A stretch of DNA of 64,000 nucleotides from an uncultured Candidatus Saccharibacteria bacterium (lineage in GTDB: Bacteria; Patescibacteriota; UBA1384; JAMDBS01; DAOVQR01), in NCBI GenBank assembly GCA_964481135.1, contig CAYZSW010000002.1, positions 29,283 through 93,282 on the forward strand, written 5' to 3'. Position numbers and translations under genes: made by a program. Below, piece by piece: positions 18,192 to 61,975 of the stretch. The notes under the pieces are model-generated. The model made no database searches. It was not told the origin of the DNA and worked only from the letters and a program-made list of their open reading frames with translations. Position 1 is the first letter of the stretch; every line of letters begins with the position of its first letter.

Positions 18192-18204
18192 TATAAAAAT
18201 TACA

Positions 18205-18376: not shown

Positions 18377-19879
18377 ATGCAAAAAGAATACAAAACAATT
18401 AAATCAATAAGCGGACCTCTAGTTTTAGTGGATAAAACCATAGATATTAAATACGAAGAAATGGTTGAAATCGAATTACCAAGTGGCGAAAAAAGAAGAG
18501 GTAAGGTTTTAGAAATCAACGAAGACAAAGCTCTTGTACAAATGTTTGAGGGCTCATCGGAAATTCTTCCATCAGAAACTAAAGTAAAATTTTTAGGCAA
18601 AACTGCAAAAATTTCCGTTTCAGAAGAAATGCTAGGTAGAGTTTTTTCTGGAGCAGGAAAACCTATTGACGGTGGAGCTGAAATCATTGCTGACCAAGAG
18701 CTAGACATCAATGGTAACCCTTTAAATCCATATGCCAGAAATTATCCAAACGATTTTATTCAAACAGGAATTTCAACTATAGATGGATTAAATACTCTAG
18801 TTAGAGGACAAAAATTACCTATTTTTTCCGGCTCTGGTTTGCCTCACTCCCGTTTAGCTACCCAAATTGCTCGTCAAGCCAAAGTGATTGGCAAAGCCAA
18901 TCATCCTGAGCGATCCTCTGGCGGAGAGTCGAAGGATCTTAATAGAAAAGATGAAAAAGAGAAATTTGCTGTAGTATTTGCAGCTATGGGTATTACTTTT
19001 GAAGAAGCGAACTATTTTATTGAAGATTTTAAAAAAACCGGCGCTATTGAAAAATCAGTACTTTTCATTAATTTAGCAAATGATCCGGTTGTAGAGCGTA
19101 TTTCTACCCCTCGCTTGGCATTAACCTGCGCTGAATATTTAGCATATGAAAAAGGAATGCATGTGCTAGTAATATTGACTGATCTAACAAATTATTGCGA
19201 GGCTTTAAGAGAAATATCTGCAGCGCGTAAAGAGGTGCCTGGCCGTCGTGGCTATCCAGGATATTTATACACCGATCTCTCAACACTCTATGAAAGAGCT
19301 GGAAGAATCAAAGGAAAAGAAGGTTCTATTACTCAAATTCCGATTTTAACTATGCCTGAAGATGATAAAACTCATCCTATCCCAGATTTAACCGGTTACA
19401 TTACTGAAGGACAAATTATGCTTTCCCGCCAATTATACAATACCGGCGCAATGCCTCCTGTTGATGTTTTACCATCTTTATCTCGTCTAAAAGACAAGGG
19501 CATTGGTGAAGGCAAAACAAGAGAAGATCATTCTCAAGTATTGAATCAATTGTTTGCATCATACGCTAGAGGCAAAGAAGCAAAAGAGCTTGCTGTTATT
19601 CTTGGAGAAGCAGCACTTTCTGATGTTGATAAAAAATTCGTAGAATTTGCTAATCGATTTGAAAAAGAATTTGTATCGCAAGGCGAAAATGAAGATAGAA
19701 CTATTATTGAAACTCTTGATTTAGGATGGAAATTAATGAGCATTATTCCAGTTTCAGAACTTAAGCGTCTTAAACCAGATATGATCGCTAAGTATATGCC
19801 ACGGACAGAGTCCGAACGTAAAACTCAAAACGAAAAAGTTAAAACAGAAGAAAAAGAAAGAAAAAATAAATTAACCTAA
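18377..19879 (+). CDS. atpB: V/A-type ATPase subunit B
   Basis: Start placed at ATG 18377 with SD AAAGGAA. The ORF-track start at 18335 is a [17 protein letters not shown]...FSGSGLPH...[10 protein letters not shown]. Contains a GC-richer ~25-aa insert ([24 protein letters not shown]) and a Lys/Glu-rich C-terminal tail. Confidence 0.95.
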
Positions 19880-24499: not shown

Positions 24500-27400
24500 C
24501 TATTTACTTGTCTGAGTTTTCTTTAAATATTCCATCACTTCTTGATATTTTTCATCCGTTATCTTTTGATATTCCTTAAGTATCTCAAGCACATCAGTTA
24601 ATTTTAAAAGTGATGTAAGCTTATATCCTTTTTTCGCCAAATTCTTACCCCCTCCCTGTTCTCTATCTAATACTACAACTACATCTTTAACCTTCATCCC
24701 AGCTTTTTTCATTGGCTCAATATTCTCAAACTTACTTCCACCATCTGTAATCATATCATCAATAATAATACATCTATCGCCTTTTTTATAAACTCCTTCT
24801 ATTTTTCTACCCGTACCATAAGATTTAGTTTCTCGTCTGGCATAAATCATTGGTTTATTTAAAATCCTTGACATATGAACTGTAATTGGAAGTGCTGTAT
24901 ATGGAACACCTGCCATAATATCAAACTTAATATTTTTTACTAGATTTGTCATTTCTTTGGCAATTTGTTCCATTAAATCTGGGTAAGAAACTAGCGGTCT
25001 TAAATCAATGTAAATTGGTGATTTAAGTCCTGACTTTAAAGTAAAATTACCAAATTTAATTGCTTCTTTGCTAAATAAATCTAGTACTAATTTTGCGGTT
25101 TTATGTTTATTAATTTCATCACGCAATTGTTTGGTTTTTATTCTAGAAGCTTGGGCAAAATCTTTGCCACTTGATGCATAAATAATACCACGAGCAGAAT
25201 TTATTATCATTCCAAAACCTTCGGAATTCATTCCATTTTGTACCACTTCTGCCACAGATCCACCCTGCTTACCAACTCCTGGAACTAAGAATTCCATATC
25301 TGGTGCTGCTTGACGAATTTCAGCTAACTCCTCTGGATATGTTGCGCCTGCTACCATTAAAAGATTGCCATTAGTATTCCACTGGTCTCTTACTTTTTCG
25401 AGCATGTGCATATAAACCGGTTTACCATTTACATCTTTTATATCTTGAATATCACGCGCACCAGGATTTGATGAACGAACCACCACTATAACACCTTTAT
25501 CCTTATACTTAGCAAACGGTTCAATACAATCATGCCCCATATAACCATTTACAGTTGAAGCATCAAAACCGAATGTTTCAAAAATCGCCTTAGCATATGC
25601 CTCATTAGTATTGCCAATATCACCCCTTTTAGCATCAACAATAATTGGTACACCTTTTTTGTGAGCATATTCCACTGTTTTTTTCAGAGCATCTAAAGTT
25701 TCATCTGCCTCATAAAAAGCAAAATTTGGTTTATAGGCACATACTAAATCAGCTGTGGCATCAATAACAGCTTTATTAAATTGATACACTCCTTGTGAAT
25801 TTTTAGCTAACCCTTCTGGTAATTTACTAATTGATGTGTCGAGCCCCACACAAACCATTGAATTATTCTCTCTTTGTTTTTTCCTAAGCATTTCTAAAAA
25901 TGTCATATTTTTCCTTTCTTCCCCCCTGCCCGCCATCGCAAGCCTAACTTGCTCGCTTACACACCTACGAGGTGAAAGAAGTTCCACTCCTCGTAGGTGG
26001 TTTACGATTATATTTGTATTTAATTCTAATGTTCCTCTTAATTTATTAATATCATCAATATTATTATTGTGTAAATATTCTTCTATTCCTTTAACAATTT
26101 CTTGCGTAATCTTTGGGTTCAAATAATTAGCAGTTCCAACAGATACTGCAGTTGCTCCAGCCACAATAAACTCTAAAGCATCTTGCGCATTTGATATTCC
26201 ACCCATGGCAATAATTGGTATTTTTACTGCTTGATAAACCTGATGAACCATTCTTAATGCCACCGGTTTTACAGCTGGACCCGATAATCCCCCGGTATTA
26301 TTGGTTAAAATCGGTTTTCTCTGATCCAGATTAATTGCCATTCCCATTAAAGTATTAATAAGTGATACAACATCAGCACCACCATCTTCTGCTGCCTTTG
26401 CACAGGCCTTAATATCTGTCACATTAGGAGAAAGTTTCACAATAATTGGTTTATTTGTTACTTGCCGAATTTTTTGAGTCACGAGTTTAATCTCGTATGG
26501 ATCAGTTCCAATTGCCATACCAGTATGCACATTTGGACAGGAAAAATTCAATTCCAAATAATCAATTTTTTTTTCTTTATCTAGTATCTTTGCAAGTTGA
26601 ATATATTCTTTTGAATCTTTACCGGCAATCGATATAATAAGCGGTAAAAAAACCTTATTCACACCTACGAGGTGTGAACTTCTTTCACCTCGTAGATGAA
26701 TAAGTTTTGGCAATTCATTTTTAATAAAATCTTTTACCCCAGAATTTTTGAGCCCTACAGCATTTAGCATTCCACCTTCAACTTTTATCATTGTCGGCGG
26801 CTTATGTCCCTCTCGAGGTTCAAGCGTAATAGTTTTGCAAGTTAAGGCGCCAAGTTTTTTTTCATTAAGATTTTTCGAACTTGGCCAATCTACTCCATAA
26901 GTACCCGATGCAGTGGTTACCGGATTTTGCCAAGTTATCCCCGCAATCTCAACTGATAAATTTGGTTTATTTTTCATTATAAATTTAACTTCCTTGCCTT
27001 TTACCTTATCAAAAATTCTACCTCTGTCAAATACAACATTTCCATTTACGATTGTCATGATTGGCCAACCCTTTAATTTTTTGTCAACGAATGGACTCCA
27101 CCCGCATTTTGTATAAAGTTTTTGATTATTTACTTTTTTAATTAAATTCAAATCAATTATTGTTAAATCAGCATCATTTCCAATTTTTACTTCACCCTTA
27201 TTTTTAATCCCAAATATTTTCACAGAATTTTTACAAATTAAATCAATAATTTTATTTAATGATATTTTCTTTTTGTTATAAGCATCTAATAAAAGTGGCA
27301 ACATTGTTTCTACGCCAGGAACTCCAAAAGGACTGTCATCTTTTGTTTTTTCTTCCCTGGTATGAGGCGCGTGATCTGTTCCAATTGTATCAACTATCCC

Positions 27401-28183
27401 CTCATCAATCGCCTGCCAAAGCGCTTTTTGATCCTCTTTTGTTTTAAGTGACGGTTTCATCTTCACAAAATTATTTTCATCTTTTTGAGTTAAAAATAAA
27501 TGGTGCGGTGTTACTTCTACAAATAATTTGCCTGCTTTACGCAACCTTTGTGCAATAGAATTATTTCTAATGTAATCTATCTCGTTTTTTGATGAAATAT
27601 GACATAAATATAAGCAAGTTCCTGTTATTTTAGTTAAGTTGATTGCTTTTTTCACCATCTCACCTTCTGCATGCACAGCTACCATTCTAGAATTTTTCCA
27701 AATTTCTAGTAAAGTATAATCATCTTCAATCATCATTTTTCCGGTTGAAAGATTCATGAAAACTTTAGTTGCAGCAACATTTTTAACTGTTTGAATTGCA
27801 TCAATATTATCCATGCTCGAACCAAAATAAAATCCATAGTTTACCAAACTTTTTTCCGATGATATTTTTCGCTTATTTTTTAGGTCATCTAATAATAACA
27901 TTGGTGGATTATTATTGGGCATATCAAGCACTGTTGTAATTCCTCCTGTAACTGCAGCTTTTGAACCGCTTTGCCAATCCTCTTTATAACTATCCAAAAA
28001 ATCGCGAAAATGAACATGCGAGTCAATAATTCCTGGTAAAATAACCTTGCCATTTAAATTAATAGTTCTATTTGCATAAGATAATTTTTTATTTATATCA
28101 AAAATTTTTCCATCTTTAATTTGGATGTTTATTTTTTTTAGCCCCTCCATCCAAACATAACCTCCCACTAGATTGGTTTTCAT
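24500..28183 (-). CDS. four-domain pyrimidine-biosynthesis fusion protein: dihydroorotase (PyrC) - dihydroorotate dehydrogenase (PyrD) - OMP decarboxylase (PyrF) - orotate phosphoribosyltransferase (PyrE)
   Basis: 1227 aa. aa ~40-400: DHOase (GIIDSHVHFRD...TDHAPH). aa ~410-720: DHODH (VEIAGITWQNPVTTASGTYG, NFSCPNV, GGISNAQDALEFIVAGATAVSVGTA). aa ~770-990: OMPdecase (MVCVGLDTS, KPNFAFYEA, VDAKRGDIGNT). aa ~1000-1227: OPRTase (FKSGLKSPIYIDLR, IIDDMITDGGS). Start ATG overlaps the pyrI stop (ATGA). Two palindromic-element insertions in frame (25915-26000; 26654-26704). Confidence 0.9.
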   Translation of the reverse strand: MKTNLVGGYVWMEGLKKINIQIKDGKIFDINKKLSYANRTINLNGKVILPGIIDSHVHFRDFLDSYKEDWQSGSKAAVTGGITTVLDMPNNNPPMLLLDDLKNKRKISSEKSLVNYGFYFGSSMDNIDAIQTVKNVAATKVFMNLSTGKMMIEDDYTLLEIWKNSRMVAVHAEGEMVKKAINLTKITGTCLYLCHISSKNEIDYIRNNSIAQRLRKAGKLFVEVTPHHLFLTQKDENNFVKMKPSLKTKEDQKALWQAIDEGIVDTIGTDHAPHTREEKTKDDSPFGVPGVETMLPLLLDAYNKKKISLNKIIDLICKNSVKIFGIKNKGEVKIGNDADLTIIDLNLIKKVNNQKLYTKCGWSPFVDKKLKGWPIMTIVNGNVVFDRGRIFDKVKGKEVKFIMKNKPNLSVEIAGITWQNPVTTASGTYGVDWPSSKNLNEKKLGALTCKTITLEPREGHKPPTMIKVEGGMLNAVGLKNSGVKDFIKNELPKLIHLRGERSSHLVGVNKVFLPLIISIAGKDSKEYIQLAKILDKEKKIDYLELNFSCPNVHTGMAIGTDPYEIKLVTQKIRQVTNKPIIVKLSPNVTDIKACAKAAEDGGADVVSLINTLMGMAINLDQRKPILTNNTGGLSGPAVKPVALRMVHQVYQAVKIPIIAMGGISNAQDALEFIVAGATAVSVGTANYLNPKITQEIVKGIEEYLHNNNIDDINKLRGTLELNTNIIVNHLRGVELLSPRRCVSEQVRLAMAGRGEERKNMTFLEMLRKKQRENNSMVCVGLDTSISKLPEGLAKNSQGVYQFNKAVIDATADLVCAYKPNFAFYEADETLDALKKTVEYAHKKGVPIIVDAKRGDIGNTNEAYAKAIFETFGFDASTVNGYMGHDCIEPFAKYKDKGVIVVVRSSNPGARDIQDIKDVNGKPVYMHMLEKVRDQWNTNGNLLMVAGATYPEELAEIRQAAPDMEFLVPGVGKQGGSVAEVVQNGMNSEGFGMIINSARGIIYASSGKDFAQASRIKTKQLRDEINKHKTAKLVLDLFSKEAIKFGNFTLKSGLKSPIYIDLRPLVSYPDLMEQIAKEMTNLVKNIKFDIMAGVPYTALPITVHMSRILNKPMIYARRETKSYGTGRKIEGVYKKGDRCIIIDDMITDGGSKFENIEPMKKAGMKVKDVVVVLDREQGGGKNLAKKGYKLTSLLKLTDVLEILKEYQKITDEKYQEVMEYLKKTQTSK
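25915..26000. repeat. GC-rich palindromic element E2, in frame inside the fusion CDS (PyrD-PyrF linker)
   Basis: CCCCCCTGCCCGCCATCGCAAGC-CTAA-CTTGC...CACCTACGAGG-(16 nt)-CCTCGTAGGTG (11-bp perfect IR). Encodes HLRGVELLSPRRCVSEQVRLAMAGRGEE. The left module is repeated at 44715; the IR module at 26654. Confidence 0.7.
26654..26704. repeat. 51-bp palindromic element E3, in frame inside the PyrD domain
   Basis: CTTATTCA-CACCTACGAGGTG-TGAACTTCTTT-CACCTCGTAG-A-TGAATAAG; arms about 20 bp; 51 bp = 17 codons (…HLRGERSSHLVGVNK…). Confidence 0.7.
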
Positions 28184-28647
28184 AAATAATTAATATCCTT
28201 TTCAACAAATTCTCTTTCACAAAAATGACATTTTATTGTTAAAGGTTTTTTTTCAATAACATAAAACTTTGATACGAGCGTATGTGGTTCTAAATAAGAT
28301 ATACATTTTGGATTAGGACATTTAATAATTCCTAAAAGTTCGTTTTGAAGCTTTAAATTATATTTTTTAATTACTTTAGAATTCTTAACAATATTTATTG
28401 TTGAATCAGGAACAAGAAGTGCTATTCTATTTAATTCATTCTGAGTAAATATCTTCTTATCAACTTTAATAATATCTTTTCTCCCTAATTTTTTTGAACT
28501 AAAATTAACACCTAGCATTATTTTTTCACCATTAGGTAAATTAAGTAAATCCAAAATTTTTAATGACTTCCCGGCAGGAATATGATCTATTACAGTACCA
28601 CTTTCAATTGGAGAAACTGCAAGTAAATTTTTTGATGTTTTTTTCAT
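28180..28647 (-). CDS. pyrI: aspartate carbamoyltransferase regulatory subunit PyrI
   Basis: Zn domain CPNPKCISY...CHFCEREF. I prefer the ATG at 28645-28647 (MKKTSKN), which overlaps the pyrB stop as ATGA; the ORF track's longer start is at 28671. Confidence 0.85.
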   Translation of the reverse strand: MKKTSKNLLAVSPIESGTVIDHIPAGKSLKILDLLNLPNGEKIMLGVNFSSKKLGRKDIIKVDKKIFTQNELNRIALLVPDSTINIVKNSKVIKKYNLKLQNELLGIIKCPNPKCISYLEPHTLVSKFYVIEKKPLTIKCHFCEREFVEKDINYL

Positions 28648-29585
28648 TTTACTACCCCCATCGTAAGGCATAAAAGCGCCTTTCTTACTGGTATTCCATT
28701 GGCTGCTTGTCGAAAATAAACAGCATGTTTTGTTTTATCAACATCAGTACTGATTTCATTAACTCGAGGCAAAGGATGCATAATTTTTAAATTTTGATTT
28801 GCATTTTCTAAAAGTTTTTTATCCAATACAAATATTCCCTTATATTTTTCATATTCAGCTTCATCGGGAAATCTTTCTTTCTGAATACGAGTCATATAAA
28901 GCACATTTAACTTAGGAATAAATTTACTCAACTGCTCTGTCTGGTAAAATTTAAGATTTTTCTGTTTTACTAATTTTTTGTATGTTTGAGGAATAGATAA
29001 GGCATCTGGTGCAATAAAATAAAAGGTTGTTTTAAAATGCGACATAGCTCTTACTAACGAATGTGTAGTTCTGCCATATTTTAAATCACCAGCCAATCCA
29101 ATATGTAAATTTTCAAGCGTTCCTAGTTCTTTTTTGATGGTATACAAATCAAGCATTGTTTGAGTTGGATGTTCGTTAGATCCATCTCCTGAATTTAAAA
29201 AAGGTTTATCTGTAGATTCTGCAGCCAACCTTGCTGAACCCTCTATAAAATGCCTCATCACAATAACATCCGCATAGGATTCTACCATTTTTATAGTATC
29301 AAACACACTTTCCCCTTTGGATGCAGAACTTGATTTTGCAGATGAAAATCCATTTACAAGCCCGCCTAATTGTTTCATGGCTGAATGGAAAGACAACCTA
29401 GTTCTAGTAGATGATTCATAAAACATTGATGCCATAATTTTATTTTTTAAATATTGTTTATGTTTTTTTCCATCAAATTTTTTAGCAGTGTCTAAAACAT
29501 GTAATATTTCCTGCTTAGAAAAATCATTAATCGATACAATATCTTTTTTCGTCCATCGAAATGATTTTTTTGATCTAGTTTTCAT
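28644..29585 (-). CDS. pyrB: aspartate carbamoyltransferase catalytic subunit PyrB
   Basis: STRTRLSF carbamoyl-P motif, HPLPR, 313 aa; directly coupled to pyrI. Confidence 0.9.
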   Translation of the reverse strand: MKTRSKKSFRWTKKDIVSINDFSKQEILHVLDTAKKFDGKKHKQYLKNKIMASMFYESSTRTRLSFHSAMKQLGGLVNGFSSAKSSSASKGESVFDTIKMVESYADVIVMRHFIEGSARLAAESTDKPFLNSGDGSNEHPTQTMLDLYTIKKELGTLENLHIGLAGDLKYGRTTHSLVRAMSHFKTTFYFIAPDALSIPQTYKKLVKQKNLKFYQTEQLSKFIPKLNVLYMTRIQKERFPDEAEYEKYKGIFVLDKKLLENANQNLKIMHPLPRVNEISTDVDKTKHAVYFRQAANGIPVRKALLCLTMGVVK

Positions 29586-29609
29586 TTTTTCTCCTAGATA
29601 ATATTTATT

Positions 29610-30566
29610 TTATTTATTAATTTTAAGTAACCAAAGCATAATTGCTTTTTGTATGTGCAACCGATTTTCTGCCTGATCAAATACTATTGAATTTTTGCCA
29701 TCAATAACATCTTCTGTTTGTTCCATGCCTCGCATAGCAGGTAAGCAATTCATAAAAATGACATTATCTTTAGCATAAGATAAAACTTTTTCTGTAACTT
29801 GATATGGCTTTAATTTTTTTATTCTTGTATTAGCTTTCTTAGGATCAACATGATAACTCATCCAGGAATCAGTATAAATAACATCGGCACCAGTAGCTGA
29901 TTTCTGCACATCATGAGATACTTCAATTTTTACATTTGTTTTTTTTGCAATATTTCTAGCAATATCTACAATTTCAGTTTTTGGCATAAATTCTTTATCT
30001 TTTGGGCAAACTGCCACCATGTCTATCCCCATAAGTGCACAACCATGCATAAGAGAATAAGTAACATTATTTTCACAATCACCAAAATAAACTAATTTTA
30101 GTTTTTTAAAACTTTTCTTTTTCTCAAGTATTGTTAGTAAATCTCCTAAAATCTGACACGGATGATTTTCGTCTGATAGTGCATCTATTACTGGAATACT
30201 AGCATTCTGAGCTAGTTTTTTAATATCAGAAAATTTAAACATTCTAGCCATTATAATATCAACATATCTAGATACAGTTTTGGCTGTATCCTCTATCGTT
30301 TCCTTTTTTCCAAGAGGTGAAGTTGAAACATCATAATATATCGCATGACCACCTAATTGTGTCATACCAACTTCAAAACTGACCCTAGTCCTAAGTGATG
30401 GTTTTTCAAAAATCATTAAAAGTGTTTTATCTTTTAAAGCATGCTTAAATTTTTTCGGATTTTGTTTAATCTTTTTTGCTAAATTAATAACAAACAGAGC
30501 GTCTTTTGAACTTAGATTAGCCAAAGAAAGCAAATGTTTATTTTCATGTTTCATTTTTTCCTCCAT
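29610..30566 (-). CDS. ornithine carbamoyltransferase-like (anabolic or catabolic OTCase)
   Basis: SLRTRVSFE, HPCQILGDLL (HPxQ), DVIYTDSWMS, FMNCLPA (HCLP-like). Probable true start M5 (MKHEN) with SD GGAGGA. Terminator-like hairpin AAAAAAAAGGAACTA-ATAGTTCCTTTTTTT at about 30575-30600 separates it from uvrD. Confidence 0.75.
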   Translation of the reverse strand: MEEKMKHENKHLLSLANLSSKDALFVINLAKKIKQNPKKFKHALKDKTLLMIFEKPSLRTRVSFEVGMTQLGGHAIYYDVSTSPLGKKETIEDTAKTVSRYVDIIMARMFKFSDIKKLAQNASIPVIDALSDENHPCQILGDLLTILEKKKSFKKLKLVYFGDCENNVTYSLMHGCALMGIDMVAVCPKDKEFMPKTEIVDIARNIAKKTNVKIEVSHDVQKSATGADVIYTDSWMSYHVDPKKANTRIKKLKPYQVTEKVLSYAKDNVIFMNCLPAMRGMEQTEDVIDGKNSIVFDQAENRLHIQKAIMLWLLKINK

Positions 30567-32723: not shown

Positions 32724-32839
32724 ACTGCATATCTCGCTACATCTCGCTCAGTAACTATTAAAATCTCATTACTACAAAAATTTTATCCATACCATAAACT
32801 CTTGAATTTTATTTATAAACACAAAATGACAAAGACATA

Positions 32840-32868
32840 CCATATTCCACTCCGTAAGTGGAATATGG
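32840..32868. repeat. exact repeated hairpin (copy 1)
   Basis: TACCATATTCCAC-TCCGTAA-GTGGAATATGGTT; the identical 33-mer also occurs at 60256-60288. Confidence 0.8.
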
Positions 32869-32939
32869 TTTATGTTTTTAGTTTTTAGTATATCAGCTAT
32901 TAGTTAACTAGTTAATAATTTATTTGTAGTAATTAGTAT

Positions 32940-36794: not shown

Positions 36795-36828
36795 AGTAAA
36801 TTTATTGTAACAAAAATCACCATTATAA

Positions 36829-36906
36829 CAACCTTTTACTAACCCCCGGGGTTAGCAAAAGGCTTGAACCTGCAAATTTCTAGCAAACCCCGGAAGTTAG
36901 TAATTT
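36829..36906. repeat. ~78-bp composite palindromic repeat (copy A) flanking the lipoprotein gene
   Basis: AACCTTTTACTAACCCCCGGGGTTAGCAAAAGGCTTGAACCTGCAAATTTCTAGCAAACCCCGGAAGTTAGTAATTT; about 88% identical to 37603-37684; internal hairpins CTAACCCC/GGGGTTAG. Confidence 0.75.
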
Positions 36907-36956: not shown

Positions 36957-37493
36957 TTAAGAAAATTTATATAAAATGGTACAAGAAACTGCAATAATTA
37001 AAATTAATAATATTGATGCCCAAGGAGATCGCTGATTTTTATAACTAATATCAACAAACCCATTGGTTATTAAAATTTTATTTTTTTCTTGTATTATTCC
37101 ATTCTTATAGTTTGTAATCTCACCTGGTGTGATTAATATTAAAGAATGGGGTGGCAATATAGGATCTTTGGAATAAAATCTTACATCTCCGTTTTTTGTT
37201 ACAATTTGATGCAAGCCAGTGTATGGTGGCAATTTACTAAATTGAAAATTCGCAACCAAATAACCATCATACTCTTTAATTTCTGTTACCTTAAAGCCAA
37301 GATCTGTTAATTGGCTTTCCACTTCTTGTCGAGAAATTTTTTGTTCAACTCCCATGCACACAATACTACCCTTACCACTTCCGTCTGGATTTAGTGTTAG
37401 GGTAATTTGTGCAGAACATCCATTAAAAATTACTGCGACAACAAACACTACCATAACACTTAACAATTTCCTAAAATATTTCAATACACTCAC
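36957..37493 (-). CDS. lipoprotein with C-terminal TM helix, hypothetical
   Basis: Signal peptide with lipobox VIFNGC-S; C-terminal hydrophobic ASILLILIIAVSCTILY; bracketed by the 78-bp repeat pair. Confidence 0.6.
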   Translation of the reverse strand: MSVLKYFRKLLSVMVVFVVAVIFNGCSAQITLTLNPDGSGKGSIVCMGVEQKISRQEVESQLTDLGFKVTEIKEYDGYLVANFQFSKLPPYTGLHQIVTKNGDVRFYSKDPILPPHSLILITPGEITNYKNGIIQEKNKILITNGFVDISYKNQRSPWASILLILIIAVSCTILYKFS

Positions 37494-37602: not shown

Positions 37603-37684
37603 CTAACAACCTTTTGCAAACCTACGAGGTTAGTAAAAGGCTCGAACCTGCAAATTTCTTGCAAACCCCGGAGGTTAGTAATTT
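37603..37684. repeat. ~78-bp composite palindromic repeat (copy B)
   Basis: AACCTTTTGCAAACCTACGAGGTTAGTAAAAGGCTCGAACCTGCAAATTTCTTGCAAACCCCGGAGGTTAGTAATTT; contains an internal ~23-bp direct repeat GCAAACC-NNNN-AGGTTAGTAA, each with AACC...GGTT hairpins. Confidence 0.75.
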
Positions 37685-37846: not shown

Positions 37847-38770
37847 ATGAAAAAATTTTCATTTTTAACACTGATTATTGTCTCGACAATAATCCTCCTA
37901 GTAGGATCTGCCTATGTGGCAGTCCAAGAGAACATCCCAACTTTTTCAACTACAACTAAAACCATAACCGCAGCTGAGATTACCCCGGAATACACGGTCG
38001 ACAATATAAACTTGAGTTCAGGCGTTGTTAAATCAACTGGGCTTAAAATATTTTACCCAACTGCAATAAATGACCCAATTTACTTTGAAGAAAAAAGTCA
38101 ACAAGATCTATTTGAGTGTGCAAAAGGAATATTGCACTCAAATAGATTTGGTCATGTTAAACCAGAAATAATAATCGACATGATCGAATTAAAAGAAGGT
38201 CAAACTATTGCTGACATTGGCGCTGCCTACGGATATGACACCTTTCCCTTTTCTCAAGTAGTTGGAAAAACAGGAAAGGTTTACTCCACAGATATTAATC
38301 CGTATGTTCTGTGGTATCAAATGCAATTGCGAACAAAAATGGCAGAAAAATACGGAGAAAAGGGTTACTATTATGATAACATTTCAATTATTCTTAATAG
38401 AACCTACGATTTAACACTGCCAAATGAAATATTAGATATTGCATTCATAAAGGATGTGCATCTACTGTTTTACGATCCAGAAAAAAAAGAAAATGGACTA
38501 GCTTCAGAAATAAATCCTGACGAAGAAGAGCAGTCCAGGATCGAAAATGCAATATATGAAGAAAATAAAAACTTCGTGTTATCGGTTAAAAAAGCAATGA
38601 AGCCTAATGCGACATTAGTTGTCATAGAAGGAAAACATGGTGGAGAAATCGCCGTAACAAAGGAAACCTTCAAAAAACTAATGAAAAAATTTGGTTTCGA
38701 AATAGTCAAAGATTACGACGAAGTAATTAGTGACTACAACTTCTACATATTGAAAAAATGCGAGGTGTGA
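37847..38770 (+). CDS. signal-anchored class-I SAM-methyltransferase-fold protein (motif I degenerate)
   Basis: N-terminal TM; IADIGAAYGYDTF (degenerate GxGxG), GKVYSTDIN (acidic post-I), DIAFIKDVH (motif IV); paralog of 41523..42494. Confidence 0.6.
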   Translation: MKKFSFLTLIIVSTIILLVGSAYVAVQENIPTFSTTTKTITAAEITPEYTVDNINLSSGVVKSTGLKIFYPTAINDPIYFEEKSQQDLFECAKGILHSNRFGHVKPEIIIDMIELKEGQTIADIGAAYGYDTFPFSQVVGKTGKVYSTDINPYVLWYQMQLRTKMAEKYGEKGYYYDNISIILNRTYDLTLPNEILDIAFIKDVHLLFYDPEKKENGLASEINPDEEEQSRIENAIYEENKNFVLSVKKAMKPNATLVVIEGKHGGEIAVTKETFKKLMKKFGFEIVKDYDEVISDYNFYILKKCEV

Positions 38771-38774
38771 ACCA

Positions 38775-39473
38775 ATGAACAACACCAAAAAAAATATTGT
38801 TTATTACATAATAACAATTATTGCTTTTCTAACAATAATTATTTCCTTCCGAATAGCGATAATTGTGAAACCTTCATCGGAAATAAAACCAGTCATACCA
38901 AAAATGAAGATTCAAGGTCTTGAATCAGATAATAGGCGAAGCAGAAGCAATAAAAAATTTTTTGAGTATATAGAAGAAGACAAATGGGATAATGCATTAG
39001 AAATGATAAAAAATAAAACCGTAGAGCCTAATGCAAAAAATCCCAATCAGTGCTATTGGACAATAGCACACTACACCGCAGACAATATAGAACGACTAGA
39101 ACAACTAATTGCCCTAGGTGTAGATGTCAACATAAAGGATGAGGTAGGTCGGACAATCCTGCACATCCAAAGCTACAGGGCTAGAACCCGTTGTATCGTC
39201 TGGAGCTTGGATAACGGAATAGACCCCAACTCCAATGACAATATAGGGCAAACTCCTTTGCACTACGCATCAAAAATGGATGCTCAGACAAAATTAGATG
39301 GGTATCCTATAGTTGAAGCGGACCACGAGCTGGCGATCCATATTCTGCTAGCTAGGGGTGCAGATCCAAAAAAAACGGATGCAAACGGCAACACTCCGTT
39401 AGATCTTGCAAAAATAAAAAATCGTCAAGATGTTTTGCCGATTTTGAATAAAGTAACTAAATCTCTCAATTGA
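38775..39473 (+). CDS. membrane-anchored ankyrin-repeat protein
   Basis: N-terminal TM; ankyrin repeats (GRTILHIQSY, GQTPLHYASKMDAQ, GADPKKTDANGNTPLDLA). Confidence 0.8.
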   Translation: MNNTKKNIVYYIITIIAFLTIIISFRIAIIVKPSSEIKPVIPKMKIQGLESDNRRSRSNKKFFEYIEEDKWDNALEMIKNKTVEPNAKNPNQCYWTIAHYTADNIERLEQLIALGVDVNIKDEVGRTILHIQSYRARTRCIVWSLDNGIDPNSNDNIGQTPLHYASKMDAQTKLDGYPIVEADHELAIHILLARGADPKKTDANGNTPLDLAKIKNRQDVLPILNKVTKSLN

Positions 39474-39483
39474 GAGATTTTTT

Positions 39484-41205
39484 TTATGGCAATCTTATTA
39501 TCATCCAATTAAATTGCATATTTTCACCATTATTATTTGAACGAATTCTAAAACCTGGTGGGATTCCAGCATTTACAGAATCAACCCAATAAATTCCCTG
39601 TGGTTGCGAGGCAGGAGTAATATATACCAAATCATTTACCGCCAAACGAGCATTACCATCTAAAGTAATATCTATATATGCCTCTACACCATCTATAGTC
39701 CATGCTCCTGTTGATTGGCCAGTCCAAGTACCACCGCCAACTACACCACCCCTAGTTTTAATACCAAATATTTGACCAATGCTAGAATTACCAATAAATT
39801 TAGCTACATAATTTTCATCATTAGTAAAAGCATTGTTTTCTACAGTTATACCAGTAGTGTTTTCTACATTTACACCTGCCTGGTTGATAGTAAATATTGT
39901 GTCATTATTAGAAGCCTCTACATTCAACATGGTCACTCTATTAAATCTTAAATCTAATACACTTGTCGCATCTATGCTATTACCTAATCGTAAAGTACCT
40001 GCTGTAACATTGCTCGGATAAATATTATCAACGATTAAATTAGCATTTTGCACCGTAATAGAGTCGGTTGCTCCAACTTCAGTAAACAATATCCTAGCAT
40101 CAGTAGCTCCTAACCCCACCCACTGTCCATCTGCAACTGTAATATTGTTGTTAAACGACCATCCTCCAGTAATTGTTTCGTTGGCAGAAAGGTCAAGTAA
40201 GTTTTGATTTTGTATGCCAGCGATAGTATTTGTTACTGCATTAAAACTAATATCACCAGTTCCTGTAATATTATTCCCTCCCATGTTAATAGCACCACTC
40301 ATGGTGCCGCCAGAAAGATTTAGTTTTGAATTTAATTGAGTTTGTAAATTTGATGTTGTACCTACTAAATATTGAAAATTTGTTGATGTAACGCCAGCTA
40401 AAGCACCACCTGAGAGAATATTAAGATCATTGGTGTTTCCAGTATAACCACCAAGTACATTAATCTCCCCTGCTGTTGCCAAAACAGTAACTGAATTAAG
40501 CTCAAATGCGCCAGTAATATTCATTGTTCCGGAAGTTGTAATATCTCCAGAAGTATTGATGGAAATATTTGATGCTAGGTCAGATCCTTGTATTTGATTT
40601 GCCAAATTAAGTGATGAATAAGTTATTGAATTTGCTGGAAGTGAAACTGATCCGCCAGTAATATTTAAACCATTTGATGCTTCTAATGTACCTGCAGATT
40701 TTATTCCAGCTGCAATATCAATTTCTCCTAAAGAATTAAGTTTTAGTATATTATTAGATCCTGTGCCAGGCGTTGCTCCTTGTAGAGCTTGAGAATTAGA
40801 TGCATTTAAAGACCACGGGGCAGAGCCTAGTTGTTTTCTAGGAGTCATCTCAGAGTCAGACCCAATTCTTACTCCTAAATAATAGTCAGAACCTGAAAAA
40901 TCAGTGTTAAGTGGAGTAATAGACCCTAGCTGTGCATCTACATAACCGCGGGTAGCATAAAGAGTATGAGTTTCTGACCAAAAAGAAGATCCGCCTGAAG
41001 ACTGGGTGTAAAGAGAAAAAGACACGGTGTAATAACCATTTGAAACAATATTACCTGATTTATTCATTAGTCGTGCTTGGTAATGTAAAGTATTAGACAT
41101 TGCCAAAGATTGAGAATAGTTAAAAAATACACATATAGATGCAATAAAAACTACTACTATAATAGTCCACCAATTCTGATTATTGTGAAATCTTTTTAGC
41201 AACAA
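39484..41205 (-). CDS. signal-anchored Gly/Ser/Thr/Asn-rich tail-fibre-like surface protein (variant 1)
   Basis: 573 aa; N-terminal anchor, beta-rich repeat region with LSGGTMSGAINMGGNNITGTGDISF; N-terminal 297 aa identical to 42611..44188, middle divergent, shared C-terminal end FNWMIIRLP. Confidence 0.75.
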   Translation of the reverse strand: MLLKRFHNNQNWWTIIVVVFIASICVFFNYSQSLAMSNTLHYQARLMNKSGNIVSNGYYTVSFSLYTQSSGGSSFWSETHTLYATRGYVDAQLGSITPLNTDFSGSDYYLGVRIGSDSEMTPRKQLGSAPWSLNASNSQALQGATPGTGSNNILKLNSLGEIDIAAGIKSAGTLEASNGLNITGGSVSLPANSITYSSLNLANQIQGSDLASNISINTSGDITTSGTMNITGAFELNSVTVLATAGEINVLGGYTGNTNDLNILSGGALAGVTSTNFQYLVGTTSNLQTQLNSKLNLSGGTMSGAINMGGNNITGTGDISFNAVTNTIAGIQNQNLLDLSANETITGGWSFNNNITVADGQWVGLGATDARILFTEVGATDSITVQNANLIVDNIYPSNVTAGTLRLGNSIDATSVLDLRFNRVTMLNVEASNNDTIFTINQAGVNVENTTGITVENNAFTNDENYVAKFIGNSSIGQIFGIKTRGGVVGGGTWTGQSTGAWTIDGVEAYIDITLDGNARLAVNDLVYITPASQPQGIYWVDSVNAGIPPGFRIRSNNNGENMQFNWMIIRLP

Positions 41206-41290
41206 CCCTCCTTAAAGAGTAGTTTTTAATACGAATATTTAAACTAAGTATACCAAAGATGGCGTAAAATTAGAATGTGGATAATTTAAT
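40330..41290. repeat. ~960-bp duplicated block (copy 1) = 5' part of the fibre gene plus ~85 bp upstream
   Basis: Apparently identical by inspection to 43318-44273, including the upstream CCAAAGATGGC...GAATGTGGATAATTTAAT (perfect DnaA-box 9-mer TGTGGATAA). Confidence 0.8.
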
Positions 41291-41522
41291 AAAATTCAGT
41301 ATAATTAAGTCATAAATGGTTACAAAGGATAAAATACTTATACAAATTTCGAAAAACTACAATTAAATGCAATTTATTCAAATACTAATTAAATTTAATT
41401 ATTGACATAGTATAAAAAAATAGGTTAATATAATAAACTTAGATAATTATTTTATGTGTTAAAAATTATCTAAGTAATTTTAATGGCTTTATTAAAAATT
41501 TGATTTAAAAGGAATGATATGA

Positions 41523-42494
41523 ATGAAAAAGTATTTTTTTGTAATTTTGACAACATTAATAATCGGCTATTTACTCGGAGGATTAACAATAACTCCAAAA
41601 ATCAATAAAATAATCGAGGTAGTAGAAGTTAAAGATACTCATACCGTAACCCTAACTCATAGTCCTAACCCTGTACCAACAATTATAGATATTGGTACGA
41701 TTCAGGTACCAGATGAAGACGAAATCGAAGCATTGCTAACTACTTCTCCCGAACCAGCCAAAAGGATTTATACAATTACAAAAAACGATGTCTTATTTTA
41801 TGAAGAACAACTAACTGTTCTGAAAAATAACGACATCTCCAATTCCATGAAACTGTTCAAGGAAGCTTATTCTTCAGCGACAATGGAAAAAATGAAAAAA
41901 ATCGATATACTTGTTGAAAACAAGTACATCGGAAAAAATAGTACTATTCTAGATTTTGGATGTGGAAACGGTAGATACACATTCAAATTTAGCGAAATAG
42001 TAGGACCGGATGGAAAGGTTTATGCCGTTGACCAAAGCATAAATGCATTAACGGCAATACTGTGTCTGGCACAAAGTGCCAAGCAAAACACTGACAACAT
42101 CATAATAAAAATAAACAACAACTATCAGTCTGCGGTCGCAGACGAGATCATAGATCTTATTTTTATTAGCGATGTTCATATTTTTCACTACGACAATCTT
42201 TCGAAAATTAATTCGGAAGGTAATAATTTTCACTATGGGTCACAAAAAGATCAAGATAAATTGTTAAAACAAATTGATGAAGAATGGACAACCTTGATCG
42301 ATTCTTTGTACAATTCGACAAAAAAAAACGGTTACTTAGTTGTAACCGAATATATGAGATGCTCTGGAAGCAAACTACGAATGAGCGAAAAAACAGTCAT
42401 TCGGCTATTTGAAAAACATAAATTTAAACTCGAAAAGAGCTTTACAGACTCCTTTAAAGAGGAGCCGATCCATTACTTAGTCTTTAAAAAATAA
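41523..42494 (+). CDS. signal-anchored class-I SAM-dependent methyltransferase-fold protein
   Basis: N-terminal TM; motif I ILDFGCGNGRYT, GKVYAVDQS, DLIFISDVH; paralog of 37847..38770. Confidence 0.65.
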   Translation: MKKYFFVILTTLIIGYLLGGLTITPKINKIIEVVEVKDTHTVTLTHSPNPVPTIIDIGTIQVPDEDEIEALLTTSPEPAKRIYTITKNDVLFYEEQLTVLKNNDISNSMKLFKEAYSSATMEKMKKIDILVENKYIGKNSTILDFGCGNGRYTFKFSEIVGPDGKVYAVDQSINALTAILCLAQSAKQNTDNIIIKINNNYQSAVADEIIDLIFISDVHIFHYDNLSKINSEGNNFHYGSQKDQDKLLKQIDEEWTTLIDSLYNSTKKNGYLVVTEYMRCSGSKLRMSEKTVIRLFEKHKFKLEKSFTDSFKEEPIHYLVFKK

Positions 42495-42610
42495 TTCAAT
42501 CAAATACCTACATTTATATAAATGTAGGTATTTTTTATTTAATAATCCTATACTTAGCCCAATTCTTAATTATGACTAATAAAAGTACAATTTATTTTCA
42601 ATAAAATATA

Positions 42611-44188
42611 TTATTGTCTAATTATAATCCAGTTAAAATCCATCGTTTCCTGAAATACACCTCCAGAATCTCTTGAAGATACTGTAAATGAATCAGCTCC
42701 AGCAGTTATCCAATAATCTCCATTTCCTACTTTCTCAGTTACTGGTGTAATTATAACCAAATCATTGCTATTTAGAAATGCTGTACTCACTGTAATAGTG
42801 CTAGGATTTGCATTACTCCACGCTCCAGTTTCTCTGCCAGACCAGTACGAATCTCCTTTAATGTAAGAATTTTCTGTTTGTAAAAGTGCATTTCTAAATA
42901 ATAATTGATCCATTGTATCATCAACAAAAACTATATCTGCTCCACCAATACCCCCCACCCCGATTGTTCGACTACTAGACATGGCAATATTACCAGATAC
43001 ATTTAATTGATCTACATTAAAATATTGCGCATTGTCAATACTAATACTACCTGCACCCGTTGCGCTAAAAGATATTCTTGGGCTTGCTGCCCCCAACCCC
43101 ACCCACTGTCCATCTGCAACTGTAATATTGTTATTAAACAACCATCCTCCAGTAATTGTTTCATTGGCAGAAAGATCAAGTAAGTTTTGATTTTGGATAC
43201 CTGCAACAGTATTTGTAACTGCATCAAAGGTAATATTGCCGGTTGCAGTTAAATTGTTTCCTCCCATAGCAATAGCTCCGCTCATAGTGCCACCAGCAAG
43301 ATTTAGTTTAGAGTTTAATTGAGTTTGAAGATTTGATGTTGTACCTACTAAATATTGAAAATTTGTTGATGTAACGCCAGCTAAAGCACCACCTGAGAGA
43401 ATATTAAGATCATTGGTGTTTCCAGTATAACCACCAAGTACATTAATCTCCCCTGCTGTTGCCAAAACAGTAACTGAATTAAGCTCAAATGCGCCAGTAA
43501 TATTCATTGTTCCGGAAGTTGTAATATCTCCAGAAGTATTGATGGAAATATTTGATGCTAGGTCAGATCCTTGTATTTGATTTGCCAAATTAAGTGATGA
43601 ATAAGTTATTGAATTTGCTGGAAGTGAAACTGATCCGCCAGTAATATTTAAACCATTTGATGCTTCTAATGTACCTGCAGATTTTATTCCAGCTGCAATA
43701 TCAATTTCTCCTAAAGAATTAAGTTTTAGTATATTATTAGATCCTGTGCCAGGCGTTGCTCCTTGTAGAGCTTGAGAATTAGATGCATTTAAAGACCACG
43801 GGGCAGAGCCTAGTTGTTTTCTAGGAGTCATCTCAGAGTCAGACCCAATTCTTACTCCTAAATAATAGTCAGAACCTGAAAAATCAGTGTTAAGTGGAGT
43901 AATAGACCCTAGCTGTGCATCTACATAACCGCGGGTAGCATAAAGAGTATGAGTTTCTGACCAAAAAGAAGATCCGCCTGAAGACTGGGTGTAAAGAGAA
44001 AAAGACACGGTGTAATAACCATTTGAAACAATATTACCTGATTTATTCATTAGTCGTGCTTGGTAATGTAAAGTATTAGACATTGCCAAAGATTGAGAAT
44101 AGTTAAAAAATACACATATAGATGCAATAAAAACTACTACTATAATAGTCCACCAATTCTGATTATTGTGAAATCTTTTTAGCAACAA
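42611..44188 (-). CDS. tail-fibre-like surface protein (variant 2)
   Basis: 525 aa; same N-terminal 297 aa as 39484..41205, different middle, C-terminal FNWIIIRQ. Confidence 0.75.
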   Translation of the reverse strand: MLLKRFHNNQNWWTIIVVVFIASICVFFNYSQSLAMSNTLHYQARLMNKSGNIVSNGYYTVSFSLYTQSSGGSSFWSETHTLYATRGYVDAQLGSITPLNTDFSGSDYYLGVRIGSDSEMTPRKQLGSAPWSLNASNSQALQGATPGTGSNNILKLNSLGEIDIAAGIKSAGTLEASNGLNITGGSVSLPANSITYSSLNLANQIQGSDLASNISINTSGDITTSGTMNITGAFELNSVTVLATAGEINVLGGYTGNTNDLNILSGGALAGVTSTNFQYLVGTTSNLQTQLNSKLNLAGGTMSGAIAMGGNNLTATGNITFDAVTNTVAGIQNQNLLDLSANETITGGWLFNNNITVADGQWVGLGAASPRISFSATGAGSISIDNAQYFNVDQLNVSGNIAMSSSRTIGVGGIGGADIVFVDDTMDQLLFRNALLQTENSYIKGDSYWSGRETGAWSNANPSTITVSTAFLNSNDLVIITPVTEKVGNGDYWITAGADSFTVSSRDSGGVFQETMDFNWIIIRQ

Positions 44189-44273
44189 CCCTCCTTAAAG
44201 AGTAGTTTTTAATACGAATATTTAAACTAAGTATACCAAAGATGGCATGAAATTAGAATGTGGATAATTTAAT
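43318..44273. repeat. ~960-bp duplicated block (copy 2)
   Basis: See copy 1; divergence begins 3' of codon ~297 and 5' of the shared upstream AATTTAAT. Confidence 0.8.
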
Positions 44274-47400: not shown

Positions 47401-47476
47401 GCGTGTGTAGCTCAGTGGTTAGAGCGCCACCCTTATAAGGTGGAGGTCGAGGGTTCAATTCCCTCCACACGTACCA
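47401..47476 (+). tRNA. tRNA-Ile with anticodon TAT (reads AUA), CCA encoded
   Basis: Hand fold: acceptor GCGUGUG/CACACGU (G1-U72), U8 A9, D-stem GCUC/GAGC, anticodon stem CCACC/GGUGG with loop CUUAUAA (U34 A35 U36), T-arm GAGGG-UUCAAUU-CCCUC, disc A, CCA. Followed by the terminator hairpin at 47483-47508. Confidence 0.75.
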
Positions 47477-52613: not shown

Positions 52614-52730
52614 TATGTTTAGGGTTAGGATATTAGTTTGGTTTAAAGATTAAGTTATTGGTATTTTAATATTAACCTAACCTAATTATCTATACTGGTT
52701 GCTTTGCTCCTACCCTTGAACCTTCTAAAA
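52614..52730. repeat. ~115-bp dispersed repeat (copy 1)
   Basis: TGTTTAGGGTTAGGATATTAGTTTGGTTTAAAGATTAAGTTATTGGTATTTTAATATTAACCTAACC...TATACTGG...CTACCCTTGAACCT; a homologous copy is at 61855-61975; GGTTAGG...CCTAACC inverted ends. Confidence 0.7.
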
Positions 52731-52892: not shown

Positions 52893-52966
52893 CGCGGGGT
52901 AGAGTAGTAGCAACTCGGAGGTCTCATAAGCCTCAGGCCTGGGTGCAATTCCCAGCCCCGCTACCA
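52893..52966 (+). tRNA. initiator-type tRNA-Met (CAT), CCA encoded
   Basis: Hand fold: C1·U72 mismatch at top of acceptor stem (CGCGGGG/CCCCGCU), U8 A9, D-stem GAGU/ACUC with A11:U24, anticodon stem GAGGU/GCCUC with loop CUCAUAA, 4-nt variable, T-arm CUGGG-UGCAAUU-CCCAG (unusual G55), disc A, CCA. Immediately abuts the next tRNA. Confidence 0.65.
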
Positions 52967-53042
52967 GGCTGAGTAGCTCAGTGGTTAGAGCAACGGCATC
53001 ATAAGCCGGAGGTCGAAGGTTCAAATCCCTCCTCAGCCACCA
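52967..53042 (+). tRNA. elongator-type tRNA-Met (CAT) (could alternatively be a lysidine-type Ile2), CCA encoded
   Basis: Acceptor GGCUGAG/CUCAGCC perfect (G1-C72), D-stem GCUC/GAGC, anticodon loop AUCAUAA, T-arm GAAGG-UUCAAAU-CCCUC (one A·C mismatch), disc A, CCA. Confidence 0.65.
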
Positions 53043-60005: not shown

Positions 60006-60257
60006 AAAATTATAATTTCTAATATCTAATTTCTAAATAATATCAAAATTCTAATTATCAAATGTTAAAAACTATTTACTCTAACTCTATTGTGATAATT
60101 CAAATTTTTTATTTTTTGAATATTTGGATTTGTTTAGGATTTAGAATTTCGGTATTAGGATTTATTTATTTATAAACATAAGTTCATAAATAATATTAGC
60201 ATATGTTCATAACTTTGTCAAGTCCTAATACTCAAACTATATAAAAAACATCTCCTA

Positions 60258-60286
60258 CCATATTCCACTCCGTAAGTGGAATATGG
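60258..60286. repeat. exact repeated hairpin (copy 2)
   Basis: Identical 33-mer TACCATATTCCACTCCGTAAGTGGAATATGGTT as at 32838-32870; on the minus strand it follows the gad gene stop with a T-run about 12 nt later. Confidence 0.8.
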
Positions 60287-60390
60287 TTGGCTTATGTCAA
60301 AAAATACCTTGTTAGGGTGATTTTTGTATTTATTTATTAAACAATTAGATCAAATTATTTATCTTTTTGAACTAGCATTTAAAAAATATA

Positions 60391-61854: not shown

Positions 61855-61975
61855 AATGGGTTATGGTTAGGATGTCAGCTTTGTTTAGAAGTTAAGTTAT
61901 TGATATTTTACTATTAACTTACTAATTTTATATACTGACTTCTTTACCTTTACCCTCGAACCTATTTTTTTAATC
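61855..61975. repeat. ~115-bp dispersed repeat (copy 2)
   Basis: ATGGGTTATGGTTAGGATGTCAGCTTTGTTTAGAAGTTAAGTTATTGATATTTTACTATTAAC...TATACTGACTTCTTTACCTTTACCCTCGAACCT. Confidence 0.7.

Follow-up and report, generated by a model that had tools for sequence, protein, structure and literature searches.

How do two neighbouring genes come to be identical to the last base over much of their length and too different to align further out, and what kind of protein do they encode? The question is raised by g1 and g2, two fibre-like genes in a 64-kb stretch of DNA (64,000 nucleotides; hereafter the window) from an uncultured Candidatus Saccharibacteria bacterium. To our knowledge, the recognition of other cells by uncultured, possibly partner-dependent bacteria is largely unknown beyond type IV pili. 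We propose that g1 and g2 probably encode paralogous secreted fibre adhesins with an architecture like that of the mosaic adhesive trimers (MATs) of Bdellovibrio bacteriovorus, with a common base homogenised by recent gene conversion and tip modules swapped over evolutionary time.

Two fibre genes share a perfect block

We compared the window with itself, position by position, at an offset of 2983 bp. The original prediction, made from the sequence before the present analysis, had described two fibre-like genes with a shared identical 5' block, and the comparison bears this out: 40348-41263 equals 43331-44246 in a single perfect block (repeat R). Its length is 916 bp and not the ~960 bp first estimated. 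R includes 58 bp 5' of the TTG start, an AAGGAGG ribosome-binding site and codons 1-286, and the two proteins are identical through residue 297, the point to which the predicted identity of codons holds at the protein level. On its 5' side R is followed by 27 bp more, with 2 mismatches, up to 41290/44273; this imperfect extension contains TGTGGATAA at 41276/44259, and in copy 2 a ferredoxin stop codon marks the end of the similarity. On its 3' side, 40106-40347 and 43089-43330 (242 bp) are 85% identical, with 36 mismatches, of which 25 fall at codon position 3 and 23 are transitions. At these mismatch sites g1 has A twelve times and g2 five times, and there is no adenine bias. Past this tract the DNA of the two genes cannot be aligned.

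The proteins follow the same gradient. Whole-protein identity is 72%, made up of 100% to residue 297, 90% in the hinge, ~29% in the middle where it can be aligned (g1 is longer by 48 residues) and 44% in the last ~85 residues, which form the tip. The moderately diverged stretch, different middle and re-converging C terminus that had been foreseen correspond to the 85% tract, the unalignable DNA and this tip. R is the sole large repeat in the window, and a tblastn search of the window found no further copy or fragment of the fibre genes. The parts of the duplicated region are:

39484..41205, minus strand: fibre gene g1, 573 amino acids (aa); signal peptide 1-36, N domain ~37-165, shaft 166-316, hinge 317-367, g1-type distal module ~368-484, tip ~485-573
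42611..44188, minus strand: fibre gene g2, 525 aa; g1-like signal peptide, N domain and proximal shaft, g2-type distal module, related tip
40348..41263, minus strand: repeat R copy 1, 916 bp, 58 bp upstream plus codons 1-286 (exact comparison)
43331..44246, minus strand: repeat R copy 2 (exact comparison)
40106..40347, minus strand: presumed older homogenised tract and hinge, copy 1, encoding ...LSGGTMSG...AVTNTIAGIQNQNLLDLSANETITGGW.FNNNITVADGQWVGLGA
43089..43330, minus strand: presumed older homogenised tract and hinge, copy 2, 85% identical to copy 1
41264..41290, minus strand: outermost part of the upstream sequence common to both genes, copy 1; differs from copy 2 at 2 positions and carries TTATCCACA (coding strand, 41276-41284)
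44247..44273, minus strand: outermost part of the common upstream sequence, copy 2; carries TTATCCACA (44259-44267) and abuts the ferredoxin stop codon
44269..44451, minus strand: ferredoxin gene, 60 aa, Fer4-family matches; directly 5' of g2, outer limit of the duplicated segment

The duplication is recovered in independent assemblies

The original prediction had itself raised the prospect that the identical block is an artefact, with the block of a single real fibre gene placed twice or two copies falsely made identical by collapse. There are grounds for such a suspicion. The source is a metagenome assembly, the 916-bp repeat is longer than the k-mer and the read length, short reads cannot phase the interior of R, and chimeric-looking paths are present (contigs L170 and L002). 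We therefore turn to contigs of the same organism from other samples, retrieved by exact-protein look-ups and covering several samples and assemblers; the JGI samples derive from an anaerobic digester in Wageningen (Table 1, PMC10159854). In at least five other samples or assemblers, the unique flanks of each copy are joined to R in contigs that end exactly k-1 bases into it, from each side (L165 at 40488, L166 at 40473, L168 at 44106). Contig L174 spans 41123-43471, and a single contig, L173, spans 41137-44246 and carries the R - B - R edge.

All four repeat junctions are thus recovered independently of the source assembly, and the duplication is therefore not an artefact of one assembly. Four assemblies cross the whole of R, and their sequences are without any difference. 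The distal halves of the fibre genes, the methyltransferase-fold genes beside them (MT1 and MT2, below) and the two copies of the 85% tract are plainly distinct sequences. We conclude that the duplication is real and that the identity of the two R copies is at least very nearly perfect. The artefact is largely refuted for the duplication itself, and as an account of the locus we find it scarcely credible.

Architecture of the fibre proteins

The sole hydrophobic segment of g1 and g2 lies at residues ~9-36. Inspected by eye, it has a KR n-region and a hydrophobic core at ~12-28, followed by SLA and MS on either side of the predicted cleavage site. It looks like a cleavable Sec signal peptide rather than the N-terminal anchor originally suggested. 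In all homologues the conserved domain begins 2-6 residues past this cleavage site. AlphaFold models aa 37-126 of this ~130-aa N domain as a beta sandwich, with a predicted local distance difference test score (pLDDT) of 80-93, and the model has no significant structural neighbour in the PDB. The sole NCBIfam match of both g1 and g2 is to NF053851 (Bdello_MAT_N), below its cut-off; relatives from the same N-domain family score 18-44 bits against this model, again all below cut-off, with an Omnitrophota protein at E 1.6e-11.

A scan of GTDB genomes and metagenomes, a collection that leaves out the source digester samples, places the N domain in about 160 loci, the source genome and its strain variants not among them. 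These are mostly labelled Patescibacteria (Moranbacteria, Saccharibacteria and others), with further labels of Omnitrophota, Desulfobacterota, Planctomycetota and one DPANN archaeon, and include free-living lineages, e.g., Desulfosarcina, Pseudomarimonas and Planctomycetota. As an aside, GTDB records labelled "uncultured Bdellovibrionales bacterium" (L007, L018, L021 and similar) have N-termini patterned nearly as those of Moranbacteria records, e.g., L021 compared with L027. The two of these that were scanned, L007 and L021, give no Bdello_MAT_N match, and the depositor taxonomy of these metagenome-assembled genomes seems doubtful.

The shaft carries fibre-type sequence motifs common to phage fibres and to proteins with YadA_stalk matches, and g1 and g2 would presumably form trimeric fibres. 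Whole g1 and g2 proteins have no matches in Pfam or PHROGs, and by sequence g1 finds only a weak CBM3 match in the PDB. Foldseek leads obtained with the full-length model (H-type lectin 2ce6 at E 0.04, tailspikes and pyocin fibres) are not significant and serve as hints only.

A conserved hinge joins exchangeable modules

Between shaft and distal module lies a conserved hinge, ...IAGIQNQNLLDLSANETITGGW.F.NNI.VADGQWVGLGA. Compared with P0003/L001, a fibre from another organism, g1 is 82-86% identical in amino acids and 82-85% in nucleotides (nt) over the hinge and the stretch just after it (83-86% nt for the hinge), as against 48% aa identity in the N domain, 12-15% in the distal part and 12% in the tip. 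The g2 hinge is 90% identical to that of g1 and 86% to that of L001, and only 63% to that of its own ortholog L180, to which the g2 tip is 93% identical. The hinge recurs at 77% nt identity in P0013 (fibre gene L183), which has PHROG tail-fibre matches and comes from a phage-like contig. This pattern of hinge and tip identities across relatives shows a modular family that has the hinge as its joint and has modules in common with phages.

The distal modules of g1 and g2 each have relatives elsewhere. The g2-type module is 67-93% identical (aa) in a related species (L180-182), where the ortholog of the g2 distal part adjoins an MT2 ortholog of 77% identity. The g1-type module is 44-48% identical in P0037 and P0038, the sole two relatives among 1.84 billion cluster representatives searched exhaustively with HMMER using the C-terminal 207 aa. 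Because each module is conserved elsewhere, the middle appears to be modular over evolutionary time rather than hypervariable, and the distal modules are best regarded as stable alleles. The predicted variability of the middle region stands insofar as modules differ between g1 and g2 and across lineages; it fails insofar as each type is conserved in relatives.

Close relatives have three C-terminal types: A (g1, g2, L006, P0037), B (P0003, L005) and a third (P0004, P0005). Six aligned type-A tips all match Pfam PF24146 (K1-lyase_C, the C-terminal domain of the phage K1 capsule lyase tailspike) below threshold, at a best E of 3e-5, and a profile search of the tip alignment against the PDB returned noise only. 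In a related clade the tip type varies at one syntenic locus, where a ClpB-like ATPase, a 162-aa membrane protein, the fibre, an optional convergent methyltransferase-fold gene and a ~450-aa CarboxypepD_reg membrane protein follow one another:

L001, 9200-13882: fibre with type-B tip
L005, 2163-5378: fibre with type-B tip
L006, 9130-13364: fibre with type-A tip, unrelated to type B
L184, 313-4206: fibre with type-A tip

The earlier picture of exported, tail-fibre-like proteins with a common base and differing distal parts is upheld by these comparisons.

Methyltransferase-fold and ankyrin partners

Three signal-anchored genes on the opposite strand accompany the fibre genes:

37847..38770, plus strand: MT1, 307 aa, class-I methyltransferase (MT) fold, degenerate motif I (DIGAAYG); first gene of unit 1
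38775..39473, plus strand: ankyrin-repeat protein, 232 aa, 4 nt 3' of MT1; Pfam Ank_4, Ank_2 and Ank_5 above cut-offs
41523..42494, plus strand: MT2, 323 aa, class-I MT fold, intact motif I (LDFGCGNG); convergent with g2

A signal-anchored MT-fold gene had been noticed beside each fibre gene, and this association is found twice in the window and again in L001, L005 and L180-182. MT1 and MT2 are paralogs, as supposed (29% identity, E 1e-16), with motif I intact in MT2 and degenerate in MT1. The arrangement was described only partly correctly. MT2 and g2 are convergent; the gene directly convergent with g1 is the ankyrin gene, whose ankyrin nature Pfam confirms and which lies inside unit 1, between MT1 and g1, and not between the two units. 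An N-terminal hydrophobic helix is evident in the translation of the ankyrin protein, and the protein is predicted to be outward-facing. Export of ankyrin proteins is a typical trait of bacteria that engage with other cells.

MT2 exceeds the Pfam cut-offs (Methyltransf_31 at 45.1 bits, cut-off 27; Methyltransf_25 at 33.7 bits), and MT1 is borderline (Methyltransf_31 at 23.6 bits; Ubie_methyltran at 21, cut-off 20.1). The MT2 orthologs P0025-P0027 are 65-77% identical to it, and its nearest solved structure is 3dh0, an uncharacterised methyltransferase. In the family alignment an aspartate after beta2 and a histidine after beta4 are conserved, and there is an insertion after beta4. All members of the MT clade, and more distant relatives, begin with a signal peptide or anchor that continues into a Pro/Thr-rich linker, and the MT domain is predicted to be extracytoplasmic. 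S-adenosylmethionine (SAM) is not expected outside the cell, so an exported SAM-dependent enzyme would be odd.

Such a gene adjoins the fibre gene at most of the related loci. An MT-fold gene is convergent to the fibre gene in L001, L005 and L180-182 and absent from L006 and L184; L179 has two MT-fold genes in tandem without a fibre gene; and no MT-fold gene was found beside the other ~160 N-domain loci. The idea that the MT paralog tracks the tip type was rejected: type-A tips occur with an MT gene, in the window, and without one, in L006 and L184.

Origin of the identical block and alternative explanations

Our proposal starts from direct observations, namely the anatomy of the genes, their homologies, the mosaic pattern and the duplication. 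The original prediction had set perfect identity beside strong divergence, and a recent gene conversion or recombination best explains the combination. The units [MT1-ankyrin-g1] and [MT2-g2] are old, with 29% identity left between MT1 and MT2 and ~29% between the distal modules; this divergence of the MT genes and distal modules also excludes a recent tandem duplication of a whole unit. One recent gene-conversion or recombination event would then have made the 5' 916 bp identical, including the ribosome-binding site and the 58 bp upstream, and an older tract, now at 85%, would reach the end of the hinge. The donor was probably copy 2, since it is there that the shared segment runs exactly to the ferredoxin stop codon. 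The differences in the 85% tract look like ordinary decay and not like mutagenesis by a diversity-generating retroelement (DGR), because they are mostly synonymous third-position transitions without adenine bias.

From its N terminus outwards, each protein would carry a Sec signal peptide, the beta-sandwich N domain of ~130 aa, the shaft and the hinge, and would end in a distal module that can be exchanged and a small, beta-rich tip. The two would have in common their export signal, their cell-proximal base and probably their expression signals, and would differ at their outer ends, so that, with both fibres probably displayed on its surface, a cell would show two binding specificities simultaneously. 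Over evolutionary time the hinge may have served as the joint at which distal modules were exchanged between lineages and with phages.

Several points weigh against this proposal. Short-read assemblies collapse repeats, and a few true differences inside R could have been merged. The matches to NF053851 reach 24.8 bits in g1 (E 1.5e-5) and 22.3 bits in g2 (E 9e-5), where the curated cut-off is 60 bits, and they align to positions 3-78 of the 162-position model, its first half. The full-length AlphaFold monomer is poor (mean pLDDT 44.7), with shaft pLDDT of 30-50. Contigs with alternative joins across R (L170, L002 and L004) could mean that the locus is less stable than the proposal assumes. Adhesion to a host or partner cell is suggested by analogy with other fibres.

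These alternative joins bear on the view that the 916-bp direct repeats recombine at high frequency, or by programme, to switch, delete or amplify the fibre repertoire by unequal crossover, as in phase or antigenic variation. Direct repeats of such length are good RecA substrates. L170 (ERZ27252301) runs from the ferredoxin side through R into the g1 distal part, the deletion form that lacks MT2 and the g2 distal half, and that sample yields the segment in between as a contig of its own, L178, which starts 4 nt past R. L002 (ERZ27252302) and L004 (JGI 3300033172) run from the g2 distal part through R into sequence upstream of g1, the join expected from a tandem amplification or an excised circle. 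These joins could be real unequal-crossover variants or path choices of the assembler at low coverage. The contigs that carry them are no longer than 1.4-2.7 kb and terminate in unique sequence. This suggests low coverage, under which an assembler can take a wrong path by chance, and other samples break cleanly at R. A deletion is moreover irreversible and hence no switch, and the distal modules are conserved in relatives. We find no silent cassette in the window, the 64 kb of genome that is visible, where tblastn was used to look for the additional cassettes that the original prediction envisaged, and no recombinase, invertase or reverse transcriptase among the genes called at 28.8-54.4 kb. 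The locus is probably not a programmed cassette-switching system, because both genes are complete with the same upstream region, no silent cassette, recombinase or reverse transcriptase was found in these stretches, and the g2 distal part is conserved in a related species. Ongoing cassette exchange, which the original prediction had named beside gene conversion, is accordingly not supported, and programmed or high-frequency variation seems to us unlikely. The exclusion of a DGR in the original prediction is sustained: there is no reverse transcriptase among the genes called, and the 36 mismatches are mostly third-position transitions with no adenine bias.

Could g1 and g2 instead be genuine tail fibres, left over from a prophage, a tailocin or some other particle of phage origin? 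The hinge motif is common to the phage tail fibre P0013, the tip weakly matches a tailspike C-terminal domain, and the weak Foldseek leads include tailspikes and pyocin fibres. Both proteins, however, start with a Sec-type signal peptide, and the N domain that comes next is encoded on the chromosomes of many bacteria; the whole proteins have no PHROG match, and searches of IMG/VR and of 50,697 GenBank phage records returned no relatives. The neighbouring genes are housekeeping genes (dnaX, dnaB, uvrD, ferredoxin, L,D-transpeptidase, ftsH), as expected from the earlier remark that no phage genes lie nearby. A prophage was rejected on these neighbours and because only short modules, the hinge and tip, are phage-like, and a phage particle of any kind is in our estimation very improbable. 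It is also conceivable that the fibres are structural parts of the cell envelope, associated with an S-layer or with cell-cell cohesion, that they recognise no other organism and that the two copies are redundant. The same N domain occurs in free-living Desulfosarcina, Pseudomarimonas and Planctomycetota, no host is known for the organism, and the region also encodes an exported CAP-family protein, a 984-aa Ig/fn3 surface protein and an L,D-transpeptidase. We nevertheless regard such a purely structural role as decidedly unlikely: a conserved base with exchanged tips and modules common to phages is the pattern of receptor-binding proteins under diversifying pressure, and MAT fibres of like architecture bind prey glycans (PMC10769870). 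A bolder reading takes the fibre gene and its convergent signal-anchored MT gene as an undescribed two-part module, in which the exported MT protein matures, modifies or docks the fibre outside the cytoplasm and the 916-bp blocks let populations delete or amplify g2 and MT2 by unequal crossover, varying the repertoire between cells. If true, it would extend MAT adhesins to small uncultured digester bacteria, with an accessory factor of their own and a copy-number switch; we hold it to be a speculative and rather unlikely extension of the MAT-like proposal, which we retain.

Genomic context

The fibre units lie among dnaX, dnaB, uvrD, the ferredoxin gene and genes for an L,D-transpeptidase, a CAP-family protein, the 984-aa Ig/fn3 surface protein and FtsH. 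Further features of the region are:

39459..39480, between the convergent ankyrin gene and g1: palindromic hairpin, likely bidirectional terminator (terminator-like scan positive on both strands)
42502..42533, between MT2 and g2: 32-nt perfect palindrome, likely bidirectional terminator (terminator-like scan)
33400, 33423, 41276 and 44259, minus strand, and 48529, plus strand: DnaA-box 9-mer TTATCCACA

Short-read contigs also break or fold back at the 42502..42533 palindrome. The perfect DnaA-box 9-mer pointed out earlier in the shared upstream region is real and enriched, with 5 copies in the window (4 independent events) against 0.61 expected; its one-mismatch versions are not enriched. Two copies 23 bp apart lie between dnaB and a 42-aa open reading frame (ORF), a site at which there is no GC-skew switch. 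Every copy lies 5' of a gene that is oriented the same way, and TTATCCACA may act in regulation and not as an origin.

Other observations concern the wider window. A 1227-aa ORF at 24500-28183 (minus strand) fuses dihydroorotase, dihydroorotate dehydrogenase, orotidine monophosphate decarboxylase and phosphoribosyltransferase domains, four pyrimidine-pathway steps, and is adjoined by two OTCase/ATCase-family genes (28644-30566). V/A-type ATPase genes (subunits I, A and B) lie at 11634-19879 (plus strand). The original prediction assumed a reduced, probably host-dependent genome; together, the predicted ATPase and pyrimidine genes argue against taking a minimal metabolism with full host dependence for granted. 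A direct repeat of 81 nt, 89% identical between 36826-36906 and 37604-37684 and with a ~31-nt palindrome in each copy, flanks a lipoprotein-like gene (36957..37493, minus strand; lipobox FNGC, C-terminal hydrophobic tail); the window holds no more copies of it. Small dispersed repeats occur at 52619-52723 and 61861-61963 (105 nt, 78%) and at 32838-32870 and 60256-60288 (33 nt, 100%). A tRNA-Ile gene with anticodon UAU, uncommon in bacteria, is at 47401-47476, and two tandem tRNA-Met genes are at 52893-53042.

Implications and comparison with known systems

On our proposal this locus would extend a recently described fibre family; it is not a new system and does not overturn current understanding. 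If g1 and g2 are MAT-like adhesins, the solution of a base with swappable tips used by phages and Bdellovibrio would also exist in Patescibacteria-labelled and related lineages, and the two proteins would be concrete candidates for host recognition, with tips that can be expressed for binding tests. The recurrent pairing with an exported MT-fold protein poses a directly testable question.

The closest known system is that of the Bdellovibrio MATs, which begin with a signal peptide and a conserved, beta-rich N domain of ~130 aa without a PDB homologue, presumed to bind the surface of the producer, and continue with a trimeric phage-like shaft and diverse tips subject to "tip swapping"; they bind prey glycans, and Omnitrophota as well as predators besides Bdellovibrio are listed as having fibres of this type (Caulton et al. 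2024, PMC10769870). In g1 and g2, too, the signal peptide is followed directly by a ~130-aa beta-rich N domain without a PDB homologue, then by a phage-tail-fibre-like shaft and by unrelated, exchangeable C-terminal modules. There are several paralogs per genome, some of them adjacent, and the Omnitrophota proteins cited for MATs belong to the g1/g2 N-domain family. A conserved base with diverse tips was looked for among paralogs and orthologs and was found, in three C-terminal types. On these likenesses, g1 and g2 seem to be distantly related to the fibres by which Bdellovibrio binds its prey. They differ in that their match to the curated N-domain model is partial and sub-threshold, that they are about half the usual length (525-573 aa compared with ~1000), that the whole-protein Pfam scan reported no Peptidase_S74 and that their tip is small and weakly K1-lyase_C-like. 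The source organism, moreover, is not a known predator, and neither a convergent signal-anchored MT-fold partner nor a perfectly homogenised base has been described for MATs.

In class-I SAM-dependent methyltransferases, motif I (GxGxG) and an acidic residue after beta2 are found as in MT2 and its orthologs, which also have above-threshold Pfam matches. The MT clade departs from them in its signal peptide or anchor with the Pro/Thr-rich linker and in its insertion after beta4, and MT1 in its degenerate motif I.

The tail-fibre genes of T-even, lambdoid and P2-like phages are mosaics in which the N-terminal parts are conserved, the receptor-binding C-terminal parts can be exchanged and conserved linkers act as recombination joints. 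Likewise, g1 and g2 have a conserved proximal part and swapped distal modules, and a hinge, common to P0013, that is kept at high nt identity in otherwise diverged genes. Unlike phage genes, they are chromosomal, encode Sec signal peptides and have no phage neighbours, no IMG/VR or GenBank phage relatives and no co-directional tail-fibre assembly chaperone.

Concerted evolution by gene conversion is known among paralogous surface-protein genes, in families of the tuf, opa and msp type. The fibre genes resemble these in the sharp-edged perfect block within otherwise old, diverged genes and in the older, partly decayed tract adjacent to it. They differ in having two expressed copies and no silent donor archive, so that it is the common part that is homogenised, and not the variable part that is diversified. 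The locus would thus offer a clean natural case of concerted evolution confined to the cell-proximal half of a receptor-binding protein.

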